Shown here: one piece after another, positions 20,062 to 54,523 of the stretch | How positions within the stretch are numbered: the stretch's first letter is position 1 | How the letters are laid out: every line of letters starts with the position of its first letter | From: an uncultured Coxiellaceae bacterium | GTDB taxonomy: Bacteria > Pseudomonadota > Gammaproteobacteria > DSM-16500 | Reading direction: 5' to 3' | NCBI GenBank assembly: GCA_964555965.1 | Contig: CAZKUQ010000001.1 | Coordinates: 35,669-99,668 of the forward strand | Length of the DNA stretch: 64,000 bases | Made by a program: the position numbers and the translations under genes | Notes under the pieces: model-generated | What the model was told of the DNA's origin: nothing | The model's database searches: none | What the model saw: the letters and a program-made list of their open reading frames with translations, nothing else

Positions 20062-21069
20062 GTGTTTGATAATAAGGCAATTTTAATCACTGGTGGAACT
20101 GGATCGTTTGGAAGAGCTTTTACTAGTACACTGTTGAAAAGATATAAGCCTAAAAAAATTATTATTTATTCTCGTGATGAATTAAAACAATATGAAATGC
20201 AATGCATATTTAATAATGATGTCATGCGATATTTTATTGGCGATGTTAGAGATGCAAGTAGATTAAGTATCGCTATGCATGATGTTGATTACGTGATACA
20301 TGCTGCTGCTTTAAAGCAAGTGCCAACAGCTGAATACAATCCTATGGAATGTATTAAAACAAACATACATGGTGCTGAAAATGTCATACGTGCAGCCATT
20401 AAAAATAACGTAAAAAAAGTTATTGCTCTATCAACGGACAAAGCAGCAAATCCAATTAATCTTTATGGTGCAACTAAGCTTGCATCAGATAAATTATTTA
20501 TCGCTTCAAATAATATGGTTGGATCTGGATGCACGCGCTTTTCTGTTGTTAGATACGGCAATGTTGTTGGTTCTCGAGGATCAGTTGTTCCTTTTTTCAA
20601 AAAATTAATTGCTGAGGGTGCAACAACATTGCCTATTACCGATCCGCGCATGACACGCTTTTGGATAACACTAGAACAAGGTGTGAATTTTGTTATTAGT
20701 GCATTTAAAAGTAATCATGTTAGTTGTATTTTTGTCCCAAAAATACCATCAGTTAGGATTACTGATCTTGCAGATTCACTTGCTGATAATATAAAAACCA
20801 AAATTATTGGTATCAGGCCTGGTGAAAAGCTGCATGAAATTATGTGTGCGGCAGATGATGCTCATTTAGTGGTAGAATATAAAAAGCATTTTATCATTAA
20901 ACCTACCATTAATGTTAACTTTAACGTTAATTATGAGTTGGATGAAAACGGAGAAAAAGGAAATTGTGTACCGGAGAGATTCGAATATAACTCAGCTACT
21001 AACAATCATTTTCTAACCATGAATGAACTAAAAAACCTGCATAACACATGCATGGAATATAGCATATGA
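20062..21069 (+). CDS. pseB: UDP-GlcNAc 4,6-dehydratase (inverting), PseB
   Basis: [30 protein letters not shown] and [12 protein letters not shown] motifs. 335 aa. Immediately followed by, and overlapping, a PseC-type aminotransferase gene. Confidence 0.8.
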
Positions 21070-22229
21070 AATTTATTCCTTACGGACAACATTCGATTAG
21101 TCACGAAGACATCGATGAAATAAGTAAAGTTCTGATGTCTGAATGGCTAACGCAAGGTCCGATGATAAGTAAATTTGAAGAAGCTATACTGGCGTATTGC
21201 AATGCTAAATATGCAACAGCAGTTAGTAGTGCTACTGCTGCGTTACATCTTGCTTGCTTAGCGCTCGATTTAAAATCGGGTGATTATTTATGGACATCAC
21301 CAAATACATTTGTTGCATCTGCTAATTGCGCACTATATTGCGGTGCTAATGTTGACTTTGTGGACATCAATCTTAAAACATTTAATATGTGTACAGATGC
21401 GCTGGAAGAAAAATTAATCACAGCAGAAAAATTAGGTAAATTGCCAAAGGTGGTCATCCCTGTTCATTTTGCAGGCCAGTCTTGCAATATGGAAAAAATT
21501 AAATCTCTTTCTAAGCGGTATGGTTTTAAAGTTATAGAAGATGCTAGTCATGCTATTGGTGGTTTATATAAAGATTCTAAAATAGGTTCATGTGAATATT
21601 CAGATATCACTGTTTTTAGTTTTCATCCGGTCAAGATAATTACAACTGGTGAAGGTGGAATGTTACTAACTAACAATAAAAAATTGCATGAGACACTTCG
21701 TAGATTACGTACTCATGGAATTACTCGTGATGAAGAATATATGGAATCCAAATCGCATGGTCCATGGTATTACCAGCAAATTGAATTAGGATTTAATTAT
21801 CGAATAACAGATATTCAAGCTGCTTTGGGTTTGAGTCAATTAAAACGATTAGATCAACAGGTGCTTTTACGAAACAAATTATCAGCCAATTATGCTCAAG
21901 AATTTGTAAATTTACCAATCGTCATTCCATTTGTTGAATCAGATTGTTATTCGGCATGGCATCTTTATTCAATTATGCTTGAGATTGATAAATTGAAAAA
22001 AACCAGACTTCAAGTATTTGAGGAAATGAGAAAAGCTAATATTGGTGTTAATGTTCACTATATTCCTGTTAATAAGCATCCTTATTATCAGCAGCATGGA
22101 TTTAAAGACAAAAAGTATCCTAATGCTGAATTTTATTATGAAAGAACAATGACATTGCCACTTTATCCAGCAATGCTACCAATAGATCAAGAAAGAGTAA
22201 TTTTTACGTTAAAGAAGGTATTGAGATGA
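21066..22229 (+). CDS. pseC: UDP-4-amino-4,6-dideoxy-N-acetyl-beta-L-altrosamine transaminase, PseC
   Basis: [17 protein letters not shown]...WLTQGP N-terminus typical of PseC. DegT-family [13 protein letters not shown] carries the PLP lysine. ATGA overlap with pseB. Confidence 0.8.
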
Positions 22230-22975
22230 AAGTTGTTGCAATTGTACAAGCAAGAATGGGATCGACACGCCTTCCTGGCAAAGTCATGATGATGTTAGGT
22301 GATAAATCAATACTTACACATGTTATCACTAGGATTCGTAACGCTGATTTGATTGATGATATTGTGATTGCAACTAGCACATTGCCACAAGATGATGTTA
22401 TCCAGAAGGAAGCAAAAAAATGTAATATTCATTGTTATAGGGGAAGTGAAACAGATGTTTTAACAAGGTATTATGAGGCAGCTAAAAATCATCAAGCAAA
22501 TGTTATTGTGAGAATCACAGCAGATTGTCCGTTTCTTGACCCATTCATATTGAACGATATGATAATTAAATTTAAACAATTACTAAAAGAAAATAAACCA
22601 ATTGATTATTTAAGTAATTGTCTTACTCGATCTTACCCTAGAGGATTAGATATAGAAATTTTCACAATAAAAACATTGCAGCAAACATATCATCAAGCTA
22701 ATCAAGATTATCAAAGAGAACATGTGACACCATACATTTATCAAAATCCACATTTGTTTTCATTGCATAATTATGCAAATCAATTAGATTTATCAGAACA
22801 CAGATGGACATTAGATACGAAGGAAGATTTTGATTTTATTTCTATAGTCTATAATAAATTAAGTATAAAAAATGAAAATTTTACTACAAATGATATTATT
22901 TCTCTCTTACAAAAGGAACCTGAATTAAAATCAATTAATATCCACATAAAACAAAAAGAATTAATTCAGAAATAA
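22226..22975 (+). CDS. SpsF-type cytidylyltransferase, presumed CMP-pseudaminic acid synthetase
   Basis: VAIVQARMGSTRLPGK N-terminal motif of the CTP_transf_3/SpsF group. Located between pseC and a Pse-associated methylase gene. Confidence 0.6.
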   Translation: MKVVAIVQARMGSTRLPGKVMMMLGDKSILTHVITRIRNADLIDDIVIATSTLPQDDVIQKEAKKCNIHCYRGSETDVLTRYYEAAKNHQANVIVRITADCPFLDPFILNDMIIKFKQLLKENKPIDYLSNCLTRSYPRGLDIEIFTIKTLQQTYHQANQDYQREHVTPYIYQNPHLFSLHNYANQLDLSEHRWTLDTKEDFDFISIVYNKLSIKNENFTTNDIISLLQKEPELKSINIHIKQKELIQK

Positions 22976-22990
22976 TAAAAAGGAATTTAT

Positions 22991-52797: not shown

Positions 52798-53442
52798 ATG
52801 GATAAGCCATCTGTTTTTATTTTAGGCGCGGGCGGGCATGCTAAAGTTTTATTAGACTGTCTCAGTTTAAATAAAAATATCACCATTCGAGGAATATTGG
52901 ATATAAACCAGCTATTGCATGGAAAATCAATTTTAGGTTTCCCAGTGATAGGTAGTGAAGATGAGATATTAAAAAATTATTTTCTTTCTAGTATTCAACT
53001 CGTGAACGGCATAGGATCAGTCAAAACAACCAGTCAACGAGAAAATATTTTTAATAAATTTAAAAATATTGGTTATCATTTTTTGAATGTAATACATCCT
53101 ACATCTTATGTTGGACAAGAAGTTATTTTAGGTGAAGGTGTTCAAGTCATGGCTGGAAGCACGATTCAAGCCGGTAGTCGTATTGGCGATAATGTTATTG
53201 TTAATACGCATGCTGTAGTTGATCATGATTGCGTCATTGAAGATCATGTTCATTTAGCACCAGGAGTTGTATGCTGCGGGAATGTGACTATTGGTAGAGG
53301 AACACATGTGGGGTCGGGTGCCGTTATTTTACAAGGAATTAATATTGGACCTAATTGTTTAATTGCAGCAGGAGCAGTGGTAACTCGTGATGTTGTTGCT
53401 GTCAGTAAAGTAGCAGGTATCCCCGCTAGAATAATGGAGTAA
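52798..53442 (+). CDS. legH: NeuD/PglD-family hexapeptide N-acetyltransferase (LegH-like)
   Basis: VFILGAGGHAKVLLD Rossmann-like N-terminus followed by LbH repeats (IGDNVIVNTHAVVDHDCVIEDHVHLAPG). Confidence 0.75.
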   Translation: MDKPSVFILGAGGHAKVLLDCLSLNKNITIRGILDINQLLHGKSILGFPVIGSEDEILKNYFLSSIQLVNGIGSVKTTSQRENIFNKFKNIGYHFLNVIHPTSYVGQEVILGEGVQVMAGSTIQAGSRIGDNVIVNTHAVVDHDCVIEDHVHLAPGVVCCGNVTIGRGTHVGSGAVILQGINIGPNCLIAAGAVVTRDVVAVSKVAGIPARIME

Positions 53443-53446
53443 AAAA

Positions 53447-54523
53447 ATGGACAAGGATGCAAAACAAACTTGGCATAATGTGTTAATTGATATCAAAACT
53501 TCTGTGCTTGCAGCTATCAATCAAATGAATGATAGCGCATGGCGTATCTTAATCGTAGTTGATAGTGATATGCATTTGTTGGGCGTCATTACTGACGGTG
53601 ATATTAGGCGTCATTTACTTAAGCAAGAAAGTTTAGAAGTACCTGTTGAACGGATTATGAAAAAAAATCCCATCACGGCTTTAGCATCAGAAAATCAAGA
53701 TCAACTATTAATGAAATTGCATTCGATGGGAATTTTACATTTACCCATTGTTGATGAAGAAAATCGTATCGTTGGTTTAGAAACGTTTGATAGCCTTTTT
53801 GCAAAAAAATCACGAGATAATTGGGTGATTTTTATGGCAGGAGGTATAGGGAAACGTTTACATCCTTTAACAATTGATTGTCCAAAACCTTTATTGAAGT
53901 TAGGCGATAAACCAATTTCAGAAATTTTGTTAGAAAATTTTGTTCGGTGTGGCTTCAAGCATTTTTATTTTTCAGTTAATTATAAAGCTGACATGATTCG
54001 TGATCACTTCGGATCAGGTGATCGATGGGGTGTGGAAATAAATTATATTGAAGAAGATGCAGCATTAGGAACAGCAGGAAGTTTAAGTCTTTTACCGGCT
54101 ATTCCAGCAAAGCCTTTTTTTGTTATTAATGCAGACATTTTAACGAATGTTAATTTTGATCATATACTTGATTTTCATCAAGAACAGAAAAATAAAATAT
54201 ATGCCACTCTCTGTGTGAGATTGCATCAAAATACCATTCCATTTGGTGTAGTACATATCAATGAATCAGATCATCGATTAGTTAATATAGAGGAAAAACC
54301 TAAAAAAGATTATTTTGTTAATGCAGGCATTTATATTTTAGAACCAACTTCATTGCGTCATTTATCATTTAATACCTATTGCGATATGCCAAATTTTTTA
54401 ACTAATCTCACCAAACAAAATTTACCTGTAGCTACTTTTCCTATCCGCGAATATTGGCTGGATATAGGCCATCACGATAATTTGGTGCAGGCAGCAACCG
54501 ATTATTTAGAAGTTTTTTCATGA
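53447..54523 (+). CDS. ptmE: CBS-pair plus sugar-1-phosphate nucleotidyltransferase (PtmE-like)
   Basis: N-terminal tandem CBS-like segments (LGVITDGDIRR, HLPIVDEENRIVG), then FMAGGIGKRLHPLT, the NTP-transferase G-loop. Confidence 0.7.
   Translation: MDKDAKQTWHNVLIDIKTSVLAAINQMNDSAWRILIVVDSDMHLLGVITDGDIRRHLLKQESLEVPVERIMKKNPITALASENQDQLLMKLHSMGILHLPIVDEENRIVGLETFDSLFAKKSRDNWVIFMAGGIGKRLHPLTIDCPKPLLKLGDKPISEILLENFVRCGFKHFYFSVNYKADMIRDHFGSGDRWGVEINYIEEDAALGTAGSLSLLPAIPAKPFFVINADILTNVNFDHILDFHQEQKNKIYATLCVRLHQNTIPFGVVHINESDHRLVNIEEKPKKDYFVNAGIYILEPTSLRHLSFNTYCDMPNFLTNLTKQNLPVATFPIREYWLDIGHHDNLVQAATDYLEVFS

Follow-up and report, generated by a model that had tools for sequence, protein, structure and literature searches.

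Three predicted routes to cytidine monophosphate-activated acidic sugars, one built around a dehydroquinate-synthase-like enzyme, in a surface-glycan operon of an uncultured gammaproteobacterium

The region at positions 20062-54523 of a 64-kb stretch of DNA from an uncultured Coxiellaceae bacterium (contig CAZKUQ010000001.1; the whole stretch is referred to as the window) was found to carry three gene sets, each with its own cytidylyltransferase. On balance, we lean towards reading it as the centre of one very long lipopolysaccharide (LPS) O-antigen or capsule operon of a Legionellales-like gammaproteobacterium, under apparent RfaH/ops-type control, in which three independent routes each lead to an acidic sugar activated with cytidine monophosphate (CMP), the third sugar being other than 3-deoxy-D-manno-octulosonic acid (Kdo). 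Route 1 would be of the pseudaminic acid (Pse) type, with PseB, PseC, PseI, an SpsF-type cytidylyltransferase, and acetamidino, N-methyl and possibly formyl tailoring. Route 2 would yield legionaminic acid (Leg) via LegC, LegH, LegG, LegI, a NeuA-type cytidylyltransferase and a PtmE-like enzyme. The third gene set, a cassette around an AroB-related, dehydroquinate synthase (DHQS)-like enzyme, probably makes and activates a new acidic sugar, as judged from the families that it encodes.

The two NeuB-family synthases proposed in a first-pass annotation of this DNA are both intact and full length: PseI at 27643..28695 (TIGR03586, 498 bits against a cut-off of 340, profile positions 1-327 of 327) and NeuB/LegI at 51685..52797 (TIGR03569, 488 bits against 400, positions 1-329 of 329). 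The three distinct cytidylyltransferases of that annotation were likewise recovered, all being CTP_transf_3 proteins of different subtypes, SpsF-type at 22226, KdsB-type at 32808 and NeuA-type at 48995 (the starts of the NeuA-type and NeuB/LegI genes differ slightly from the 49007 and 51718 given earlier). As for its three separate activation pathways, the cytidylyltransferases do fall into three separate gene sets and the Leg set is nearly complete, but the Pse set is without PseH and PseG in the window. Its "unknown KdsB-dependent sugar" stands in so far as there is a third CMP branch; what surrounds the KdsB-type gene goes beyond a lone cytidylyltransferase and is a conserved multi-gene cassette around the DHQS-like enzyme, with a non-Kdo pocket.

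Operon layout and the Pse and Leg routes

From position 11851 to the window end, all open reading frames (ORFs) of at least 100 aa are on the + strand, as are all features described below from that position onward. The widest intergenic gap between the genes of the region is 65 bp, counting a 64-aa carrier protein ORF (40967..41161); before this ORF was counted, an apparent gap of 243 bp (40929-41173) was the largest. Only two terminator-like hairpins were found between 38 and 47 kb, fewer than in shuffled sequence, and both lie within coding sequence. A paralogue of the NusG/RfaH antiterminator family stands at the head of the locus (2470..2988, + strand; PF02357, E 1.5e-17), and the sole exact match in the window to an ops-like octamer, GGCGGTAG (14576..14583), is in the 125-bp intergenic gap between ORFs 12918-14498 and 14624-16399, before the ATP-binding cassette (ABC) exporter. 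From its sequence features, the operon appears to be under RfaH/ops-type control, and the NusG-domain paralogue could be RfaH or NusG. The LPS/capsule-like context described at first was upheld: the NusG/RfaH-like protein, a Wzy_C protein, the ABC exporter and GT4 glycosyltransferases are present, and maf and flagellar families had no match on any scanned window ORF. The window has a GC content of ∼33%. Three window proteins (AroB-like, LIC12162-family and formyltransferase-like) have 100% identical counterparts in "uncultured bacterium ACD_46C00181", and the AroB-like protein has its nearest relatives in Coxiellaceae, Legionella-like and other gammaproteobacterial metagenome-assembled genomes (MAGs). 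A Leptospira origin, which the LIC12162 family name and the low GC content had suggested, was rejected in the light of these matches.

The Pse block (20062-28695) opens with the inverting 4,6-dehydratase PseB (20062..21069; TIGR03589, 531 bits against 408) and the aminotransferase PseC (21066..22229; TIGR03588, 540 bits against 424). The SpsF-type cytidylyltransferase (22226..22975; PF02348, E 1.6e-34; best PDB match 6OEW, "Cytidylyltransferase", E 5e-49) scored only 30 bits on the PseF model TIGR03584 (cut-off 206), yet is a full CTP_transf_3 protein; it is 43.6% identical to the only cytidylyltransferase of a complete Pse cluster in Alkalibacillus almallahensis, which supports its role as a putative CMP-Pse synthetase. 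A Pse biosynthesis-associated methylase (22991..23614; TIGR03587, 300 bits) is followed by a WbuX/HisH/WbuZ amidotransferase set for acetamidino formation (23622..26182; TIGR03573, 306 bits; TIGR01855, 213 bits; TIGR03572, 285.5 bits against a cut-off of 299.7), a truncated formyltransferase-like protein (26248..26964; PF21553; PDB 1ZGH, E 1e-67), a PIG-L deacetylase (26897..27619; PF02585) and finally PseI. This acetamidino set is the second of two; the first, a WbuX/HisH-like/HisF-like set acting on an N-acetyl sugar, lies upstream (16418..18958; TIGR03573, 333 bits; GATase PF00117; TIGR03572, 229 bits against 300). The presence of two sets points to acetamidino formation on two distinct N-acetyl sugars or at two positions.

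Statements of absence here and below refer to the window. Hidden Markov models (HMMs) of PseG and PseH did not match any of the six unassigned window ORFs even at E ≤ 1, nor did PseG (TIGR03590) or PseH (TIGR03585)/GNAT on the other window ORFs at stricter thresholds; a six-frame tblastn search of the window with the PseG proteins of Marinifilum fragile and Alkalibacillus and the Alkalibacillus GNAT protein found nothing, and hhalign against nine window proteins gave no signal. With PseG and PseH undetected, the window holds four of the six canonical Pse steps, and the Pse branch, as read from the window sequence, is incomplete unless pseG and pseH lie elsewhere in the genome. The formyltransferase-like/PIG-L pair directly precedes NeuB in the Pse-type clusters of M. 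fragile (8001-9363) and A. almallahensis (8001-9402), where PseG is also encoded (192 and 101 bits on TIGR03590), together with a GNAT protein in Alkalibacillus. Since clusters with the pair also carry PseG, it is taken to be a tailoring module, and its candidacy as a substitute for PseG/PseH was ruled out. The formyltransferase-like protein has at least 7,788 homologues at E ≤ 1e-10, one of which is fused to a GNAT domain.

The best-surviving alternative, unlikely in our estimate though of some real weight, is that two or fewer activated sugars are made, the Pse branch being a remnant or reliant on genes elsewhere. The failure of HMM, tblastn and hhalign searches alike to find PseG/PseH, and the presence of PseG in related clusters with the formyltransferase-like/PIG-L pair, are what this alternative would lead one to expect. 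The branch does not otherwise look decayed, however: PseB, PseC, PseI and the cytidylyltransferase are full length, the first three scoring far above their cut-offs. The operon also runs past the end of the window, with the rest of the genome outside the analysis, and other acetyltransferases are present (31451 and 52798).

The Leg block (45812-54523) consists, in order, of an extended short-chain dehydrogenase/reductase (SDR; from 45812; 56 bits on the LegB model TIGR04180, cut-off 475), LegC (from 46906; TIGR04181, 540 bits against 420), a Gfo/Idh/MocA enzyme (from 48093), the NeuA-type cytidylyltransferase (48995..49711; best PDB matches CMP-N-acetylneuraminic acid synthetases, about E 1e-24), a second SDR (from 49711), NeuC/LegG (from 50526; TIGR03568, 466 bits against 236), NeuB/LegI, NeuD/LegH (from 52798; TIGR03570, 224 bits against 161) and a PtmE-like CBS-domain nucleotidyltransferase (from 53447; PF00483 plus CBS), which closes the block at 54523. 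The NeuA-type gene thus sits between those for the Gfo/Idh/MocA enzyme and the second SDR; its product would be the CMP-Leg synthetase and the CBS/NTP_transferase protein would supply the guanosine diphosphate (GDP)-sugar in the manner of PtmE, both specificities being predicted. No classical LegB was found among the extended SDRs at 45812, 56820 and 11851, which have YxxxK and no TDE/TSE motif and all score far below the TIGR04180 cut-off (186 bits for ORF 56820). The 4,6-dehydratase step is ambiguous, with the PglF-like membrane 4,6-dehydratase in the upstream part of the locus (3018..5135) or the SDR at 45812 as candidate, the former being a possible source of the 4-keto sugar; the Leg branch otherwise appears essentially complete. 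Legionella pneumophila forms Leg from uridine diphosphate (UDP)-diNAc-bacillosamine. The Leg pathway components listed for Campylobacter jejuni and Leptospira match those of the window Leg block (PMC3438082).

The third-branch cassette

Between the Pse and Leg blocks, a run of ten genes (28722-37961) encodes a LIC12162-family transferase (28722..30563; TIGR04331, 380 bits against 225), a 294-aa protein without family match, in which a GxGxG motif like that of S-adenosylmethionine-dependent methyltransferases was read by eye (30556..31440), a hexapeptide acetyltransferase (31451..32059; WbbJ-like, 73 bits), an HpcH/HpaI-family class II pyruvate aldolase (32059..32808; PF03328, E 6e-34; PDB HpaI, GarL and YfaU, E 1e-32 to 1e-35), the KdsB-family cytidylyltransferase (32808..33590), a Gfo/Idh/MocA oxidoreductase (33599..34615; IolG-like, 92 bits), a FabG-like SDR (34572..35330; PF13561/PF00106), the AroB-related enzyme (35305..36399; TIGR04425, 506 bits against 400), a D-2-hydroxyacid dehydrogenase (36387..37319) and a GmhA-like SIS isomerase (37335..37961; PF13580, SIS_2). 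The Gfo enzyme resembles aldose C1/cyclitol dehydrogenases, its PDB matches being inositol dehydrogenases, glucose-fructose oxidoreductase and aldose-aldose oxidoreductase. Among solved structures, 3-phosphoglycerate dehydrogenases (PDB 1WWK, E 3.5e-55) come closest to the 2-hydroxyacid dehydrogenase, which is also near a 2-ketogluconate reductase. At the position of the 294-aa protein, two related loci, L083 and L002 (related loci are numbered from L001 upward), have an FkbM methyltransferase.

The cytidylyltransferase and 36 cassette-linked homologues were aligned with four crystallised KdsB/KpsU proteins. The residues that bind cytidine triphosphate (CTP) and metal in the references (R10, R15, K19, the Q-G-D-E motif and D233) are conserved in the cassette clade. 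The sugar pocket is changed consistently over all 37 members. Asp at window position 51 and Ser at position 75 of the references are replaced by invariant Cys and Arg, and Escherichia coli Y187 by an invariant Phe (F186 in the window protein), so that C51, R75 and F186 are newly invariant; H181, invariant in the four references, is Q or I in the clade (Q in the window protein), Y185 is I, F or M (I in the window protein), and the LEQLR motif is altered (IDMMR in the window protein). The Kdo C5 hydroxyl is reported to form hydrogen bonds with Y185 and Q98 in E. coli KdsB (PMC12199768). The cassette clade has kept Q98 and lost Y185. The H181 position is Q in 19 of 19 clade members from loci with HpcH, the type to which the window belongs, and I in 12 of 12 from loci with a HisC-like aminotransferase. 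That a pocket residue tracks the accessory enzyme indicates that the cytidylyltransferase acts on the cassette's own product and that the HpcH and aminotransferase variants make different products.

These residues bear on the second alternative, namely that the KdsB-type gene encodes a standard CMP-Kdo synthetase of the capsule type, comparable to E. coli KpsU, and that housekeeping KdsA/KdsC supply plain Kdo as the third sugar, with the adjacent oxidoreductases and the AroB-like enzyme serving something else. We consider it decidedly unlikely. The protein does pass the cut-offs of PRK13368 (259 bits against 255) and TIGR00466 (163.5 against 155), its best solved relative is KpsU (PDB 1GQ9, E 4e-41), and its catalytic residues are intact. 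Against this, the Kdo O5 contact Y185 and also H181 are replaced throughout the clade, with C51, R75 and F186 invariant instead, and the covariation of the pocket with HpcH or aminotransferase context is perfect. The order of the gene with the rest of the cassette is also fixed across phyla, and family scans of the window ORFs found no KdsA, KdsC or KdsD/KpsF, of which housekeeping copies may lie elsewhere in the genome.

The AroB-like protein was used as a marker of the cassette across genomes. When one genome per species was scanned, at least 576 of 599 candidate stretches encoded a relative of it. In the best 79 loci listed, the AroB-like proteins were 50-66% identical, and these loci came from Legionellales, many Rhodospirillales and magnetotactic bacteria, Elusimicrobia, Opitutaceae, Actinomycetota, candidate division WWE3 and Raphidiopsis brookii D9; the range of the marker includes Legionellales, Chlamydiae, Rhodospirillales, Elusimicrobia, Actinomycetota and a cyanobacterium. 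Culturable carriers of the cassette include Hyphobacterium lacteum HN-65 (L014), Raphidiopsis brookii D9 (L055) and Rhodospirillaceae bacterium LM-1 (L051). Candidatus Desulfarcum (L001) and two MAGs, one from Chlamydiae (L002) and one from Coxiellaceae (L003), share the gene run of the window in nearly the same order. In the loci examined, the AroB-like gene is always in glycan clusters beside the SDR and never in a shikimate context. A plasmid collection searched with the AroB-like protein gave no match, and literature searches found nothing relevant on the cassette, on TIGR04425, on LIC12162 function, or on a dehydroquinate synthase linked to KdsB, HpcH, nonulosonic acids or carbocycles.

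Gene content was counted by tblastn with the window proteins on 58 related loci of at least 15 kb. The SDR had a match in all 58, Gfo and the 2-hydroxyacid dehydrogenase each in 51, the KdsB-like protein in 48, HpcH in 28 and SIS in 26. PseI and LegI matched in 6 loci each, and the cassette is therefore independent of a NeuB-type synthase. Two architectures were evident. One runs (LIC-like) - HpcH - cytidylyltransferase - Gfo - SDR - AroB-like - 2-hydroxyacid dehydrogenase; the other runs HisC-like aminotransferase - Gfo - (Gfo) - cytidylyltransferase - SDR - AroB-like - 2-hydroxyacid dehydrogenase. Clustering of the ORFs of the 58 loci placed HpcH in 20 and the HisC-like aminotransferase in 15, together in none, and 17 of 24 HpcH genes directly adjoin the cassette cytidylyltransferase. 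Seven loci have a 6-phosphogluconolactonase-family gene (TIGR01198, over the cut-off) embedded in or abutting the cassette (e.g., L007 7967-8722, L010 12027-12701 and L016 2563-3261), which in the Legionella MAG L007 lies between the AroB-like and 2-hydroxyacid dehydrogenase genes. Separately, the 21-kb locus L002 encodes three CTP_transf_3 proteins, a pair of HpcH aldolases and no fewer than three proteins of the LIC12162 superfamily, and multi-branch CMP-sugar loci are thus not unique to the window.

The AroB-like protein scored 263 bits on the true AroB model TIGR01357, below its cut-off of 305, and matched PDB dehydroquinate synthases at E 4e-44. Fourteen residues are invariant in its family (R120, D136, K142, N152, E184, K187, K225, R239, N243, H246, H250, H262, K320 and K321) and occur unchanged at the aligned positions of three crystallised DHQS proteins. 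If these are mapped as the ligands of DHQS, the substrate should be a 2-ulosonate phosphate resembling 3-deoxy-D-arabino-heptulosonate 7-phosphate (DAHP). Enzymes of the 3-phosphoglycerate dehydrogenase and 2-ketogluconate reductase types convert (phospho)aldonic acids between their 2-hydroxy and 2-keto forms, and the lactonase-family gene near the cassette hints at a phospho-lactone intermediate.

Our best guess is that the cassette product is a non-Kdo 2-ulosonic acid, possibly carbocyclic. In the proposed route, the SIS isomerase would convert a ketose phosphate to an aldose phosphate and the Gfo/Idh/MocA enzyme would turn this into a phospho-lactone, which would be opened to the phospho-aldonate by a lactonase or by spontaneous hydrolysis. 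The phosphoglycerate-dehydrogenase-like enzyme would then form the 2-ulosonate phosphate, from which the AroB-like enzyme would eliminate phosphate, with or without aldol ring closure, and the SDR would reduce the resulting ketone. The diverged KdsB-family enzyme would activate the product with CTP, and the LIC12162-family GT-B transferase would probably install it. In the window variant, the HpcH pyruvate aldolase would also contribute, either as a parallel, DAHP-synthase-like entry or by extending the chain before activation.

The transferase at the end of this route belongs to a family named after the genome of Leptospira interrogans. An AlphaFold2 model of the window protein (predicted local distance difference test score 90) has a GT-B fold, and Foldseek ranked the cytidine diphosphate (CDP)-glycerol-using teichoic acid polymerase TagF (E 5.5e-8) first and generic GT-B proteins next, with modest TM-scores. 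Strict family members were found in 6 of 82 related loci. Three further clusters of 530-630-aa proteins are mutually homologous (hhalign probability ≥99%), two of them being distantly related to LIC12162 (94-97%), and members of this superfamily occur in 32 of the 58 cassette loci. Other LIC12162 genes lie beside NeuB and a cytidylyltransferase, or beside phosphonate genes. Fold and gene neighbours together led us to assign the family as transferases for cytidine-nucleotide-activated donors, of which it may handle several kinds; the window protein, a candidate for a CMP-activated acid sugar, is predicted from its model and context to serve either the Pse branch or the cassette. In locus L084 (10001-16376), a LIC12162-family gene stands between a NeuB/cytidylyltransferase block and a phosphonate block, the latter comprising a phosphoenolpyruvate mutase fused to a cytidylyltransferase, a decarboxylase, an iron-dependent alcohol dehydrogenase (Fe-ADH) and a CDP-alcohol phosphatidyltransferase.

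It is very improbable that the cassette instead supplies a side group or a modification of the Pse or Leg sugars (e.g., an N-acyl or ether-linked acid substituent) and yields no glycosyl residue of its own, for although it lies between the Pse and Leg blocks and next to a module of an AMP-ligase and a carrier protein, and NeuB genes occur near it in a few other loci, PseI and LegI homologues are as rare in cassette loci as counted above, the cassette comes with a cytidylyltransferase and, more often than not, a LIC12162-superfamily transferase of its own, and the AMP-ligase module is not conserved with it.

Several points weigh against three routes with a non-Kdo third sugar, beginning with PseG and PseH, which the 64-kb window does not encode, and with the two NCBIfam KdsB cut-offs, which the KdsB-type protein passes, though narrowly. 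The related loci were picked by similarity to the AroB-like protein, inflating its apparent centrality, and the ORF caller was crude for high-GC loci. The close relative locus L083 (14558-16748), whose LIC12162 protein is 61% identical to that of the window, has NeuB, LIC12162, methyltransferase, HpcH, cytidylyltransferase, Gfo, 2-hydroxyacid dehydrogenase and SIS genes, with a single 84-aa ORF in place of the SDR and AroB-like genes; some variants can therefore do without the AroB step, and the SDR and AroB-like pair forms a separable module. The zinc, phosphate and carboxylate ligands among the invariant AroB-like residues are presumed from the Aspergillus nidulans DHQS numbering. Finally, the role of HpcH is not accounted for by the oxidative scheme, and we infer the order of the route 3 reactions from family similarities.

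A more daring form of the same route, quite unlikely in our view, has a carbocyclic "carba-ulosonic acid" akin to quinate as the cassette product. Ring closure of a hept-2-ulosonate 7-phosphate would then fall to the DHQS-like enzyme, and reduction of the ketone on the ring to the SDR. The diverged KdsB-type enzyme would place CMP on the tertiary hydroxyl beside the carboxylate, the position that in the carbocycle would correspond to the anomeric centre of Kdo, and the TagF-like LIC12162 transferase would add the product to the surface glycans of what would be hundreds of bacterial species. The cassette product may not be an alpha-keto acid, in which case the derivatisation with 1,2-diamino-4,5-methylenedioxybenzene proposed in the first-pass annotation could miss it.

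Neighbouring genes

The accessory block between the cassette and the Leg block (37958..45757) encodes a PF04199 cyclase, a 431-aa protein of unknown function, a polysaccharide deacetylase, the 64-aa carrier protein (an unlisted ORF; PF00550 phosphopantetheine attachment, motif LDS), an M29-like protein, the AMP-ligase (42141..43658, downstream of the carrier and M29-like proteins), a class I aminotransferase and a 286-aa protein of unknown function. By tblastn on the 58 loci, these genes seldom if ever accompany the cassette. The block is probably an acyl or aminoacyl decoration module in the style of DltA/DltC, as predicted from its families.

In the upstream part of the locus, the Wzy_C protein is at 6932..8203 and the ABC exporter, with fused membrane and ATPase domains, at 14624..16399 (PF00005, PF00664). 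The exporter is preceded by an HldE-like bifunctional protein (12918..14498), whose domain order is reversed, with the nucleotidyltransferase N-terminal and the PfkB kinase C-terminal; an HldE-like gene also precedes the ABC exporter in L083. Directly upstream of pseB, a 328-aa protein without family match (19019-20005) has a P-loop-like GIGKCGKS motif and might be a sulfotransferase or kinase. Downstream of the Leg block, the operon continues with GT4 glycosyltransferases, epimerases, a WecB-like 2-epimerase and a deacetylase (54544..63090).

Significance and comparison with known systems

CMP-activated acidic sugars, such as Kdo and the sialic, legionaminic and pseudaminic acids, shape the recognition of bacteria by hosts, phages and complement, and to our knowledge just a handful of biosynthetic routes to them are known. 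The locus points to a further conserved route, the AroB-like marker of which is present in at least 576 species-level genomes, and in which a shikimate-pathway-type enzyme has been recruited into glycan synthesis. Standard annotation would label the cytidylyltransferase "KdsB" and the cyclase-like enzyme "AroB", hiding the pathway. The carbocycle, if true, would represent a class of building block new to the bacterial cell surface. Experimental handles are offered by the small number of soluble enzymes, by the natural aldolase and aminotransferase variants, and by cytidylyltransferase pockets that differ in step with them.

Pse and Leg pathways coexist in the flagellin glycosylation island of C. 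jejuni, which resembles the window in this pairing and in its WbuX/PseA-type acetamidino enzymes; the window order of Gfo-like, cytidylyltransferase, SDR, NeuC, NeuB and PtmE-like genes also agrees with that of the C. jejuni ptm genes. The window differs in being without maf or flagellar genes, PseG and PseH, in its LPS/capsule context (ABC exporter, Wzy_C, GT4, NusG paralogue), and in its third CMP branch. The combination of Pse and Leg in one locus is thus already known from Campylobacter, and it is also known from Leptospira (PMC3438082); the third branch is the most valuable part of the present locus. The locus of Leptospira interrogans has several nonulosonic acid (NulO) synthases and several CMP-NulO synthetases, with a complete Leg pathway of PtmE, LegC, LegH, LegG, LegI and LegF (PMC3438082). 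It is like the window in uniting multiple enzymes of both kinds in one surface-glycan locus, but a KdsB-type cytidylyltransferase, an HpcH aldolase and an AroB-like enzyme were not found in that paper (PMC3438082).

The KpsU/KpsF pair of the E. coli group 2 capsule is similar to the cassette in having a second KdsB-family enzyme dedicated to a surface polysaccharide, with an SIS-domain isomerase alongside. The cassette, however, has different pocket residues and a SIS protein that is GmhA-like and not KpsF-like, and adds an aldolase, three oxidoreductases and the AroB-like enzyme. In the synthesis of 8-amino-8-deoxy-Kdo (Kdo8N) in Shewanella, KdnA and KdnB, an aminotransferase and an oxidoreductase of the DHQS/Fe-ADH fold, tailor an ulosonic acid that KdsB then activates, an arrangement resembling the aminotransferase variant of the cassette; the cassette enzyme, unlike KdnB, is truly DHQS-like and not an Fe-ADH, and keeps the mapped phosphate and carboxylate residues. 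Compared with AroB and the sugar phosphate cyclases, finally, the cassette AroB-like protein keeps the motif residues of crystallised DHQS, but it falls under the AroB equivalog cut-off (263 against 305 bits) and, in the loci examined, its gene is never in a shikimate context.

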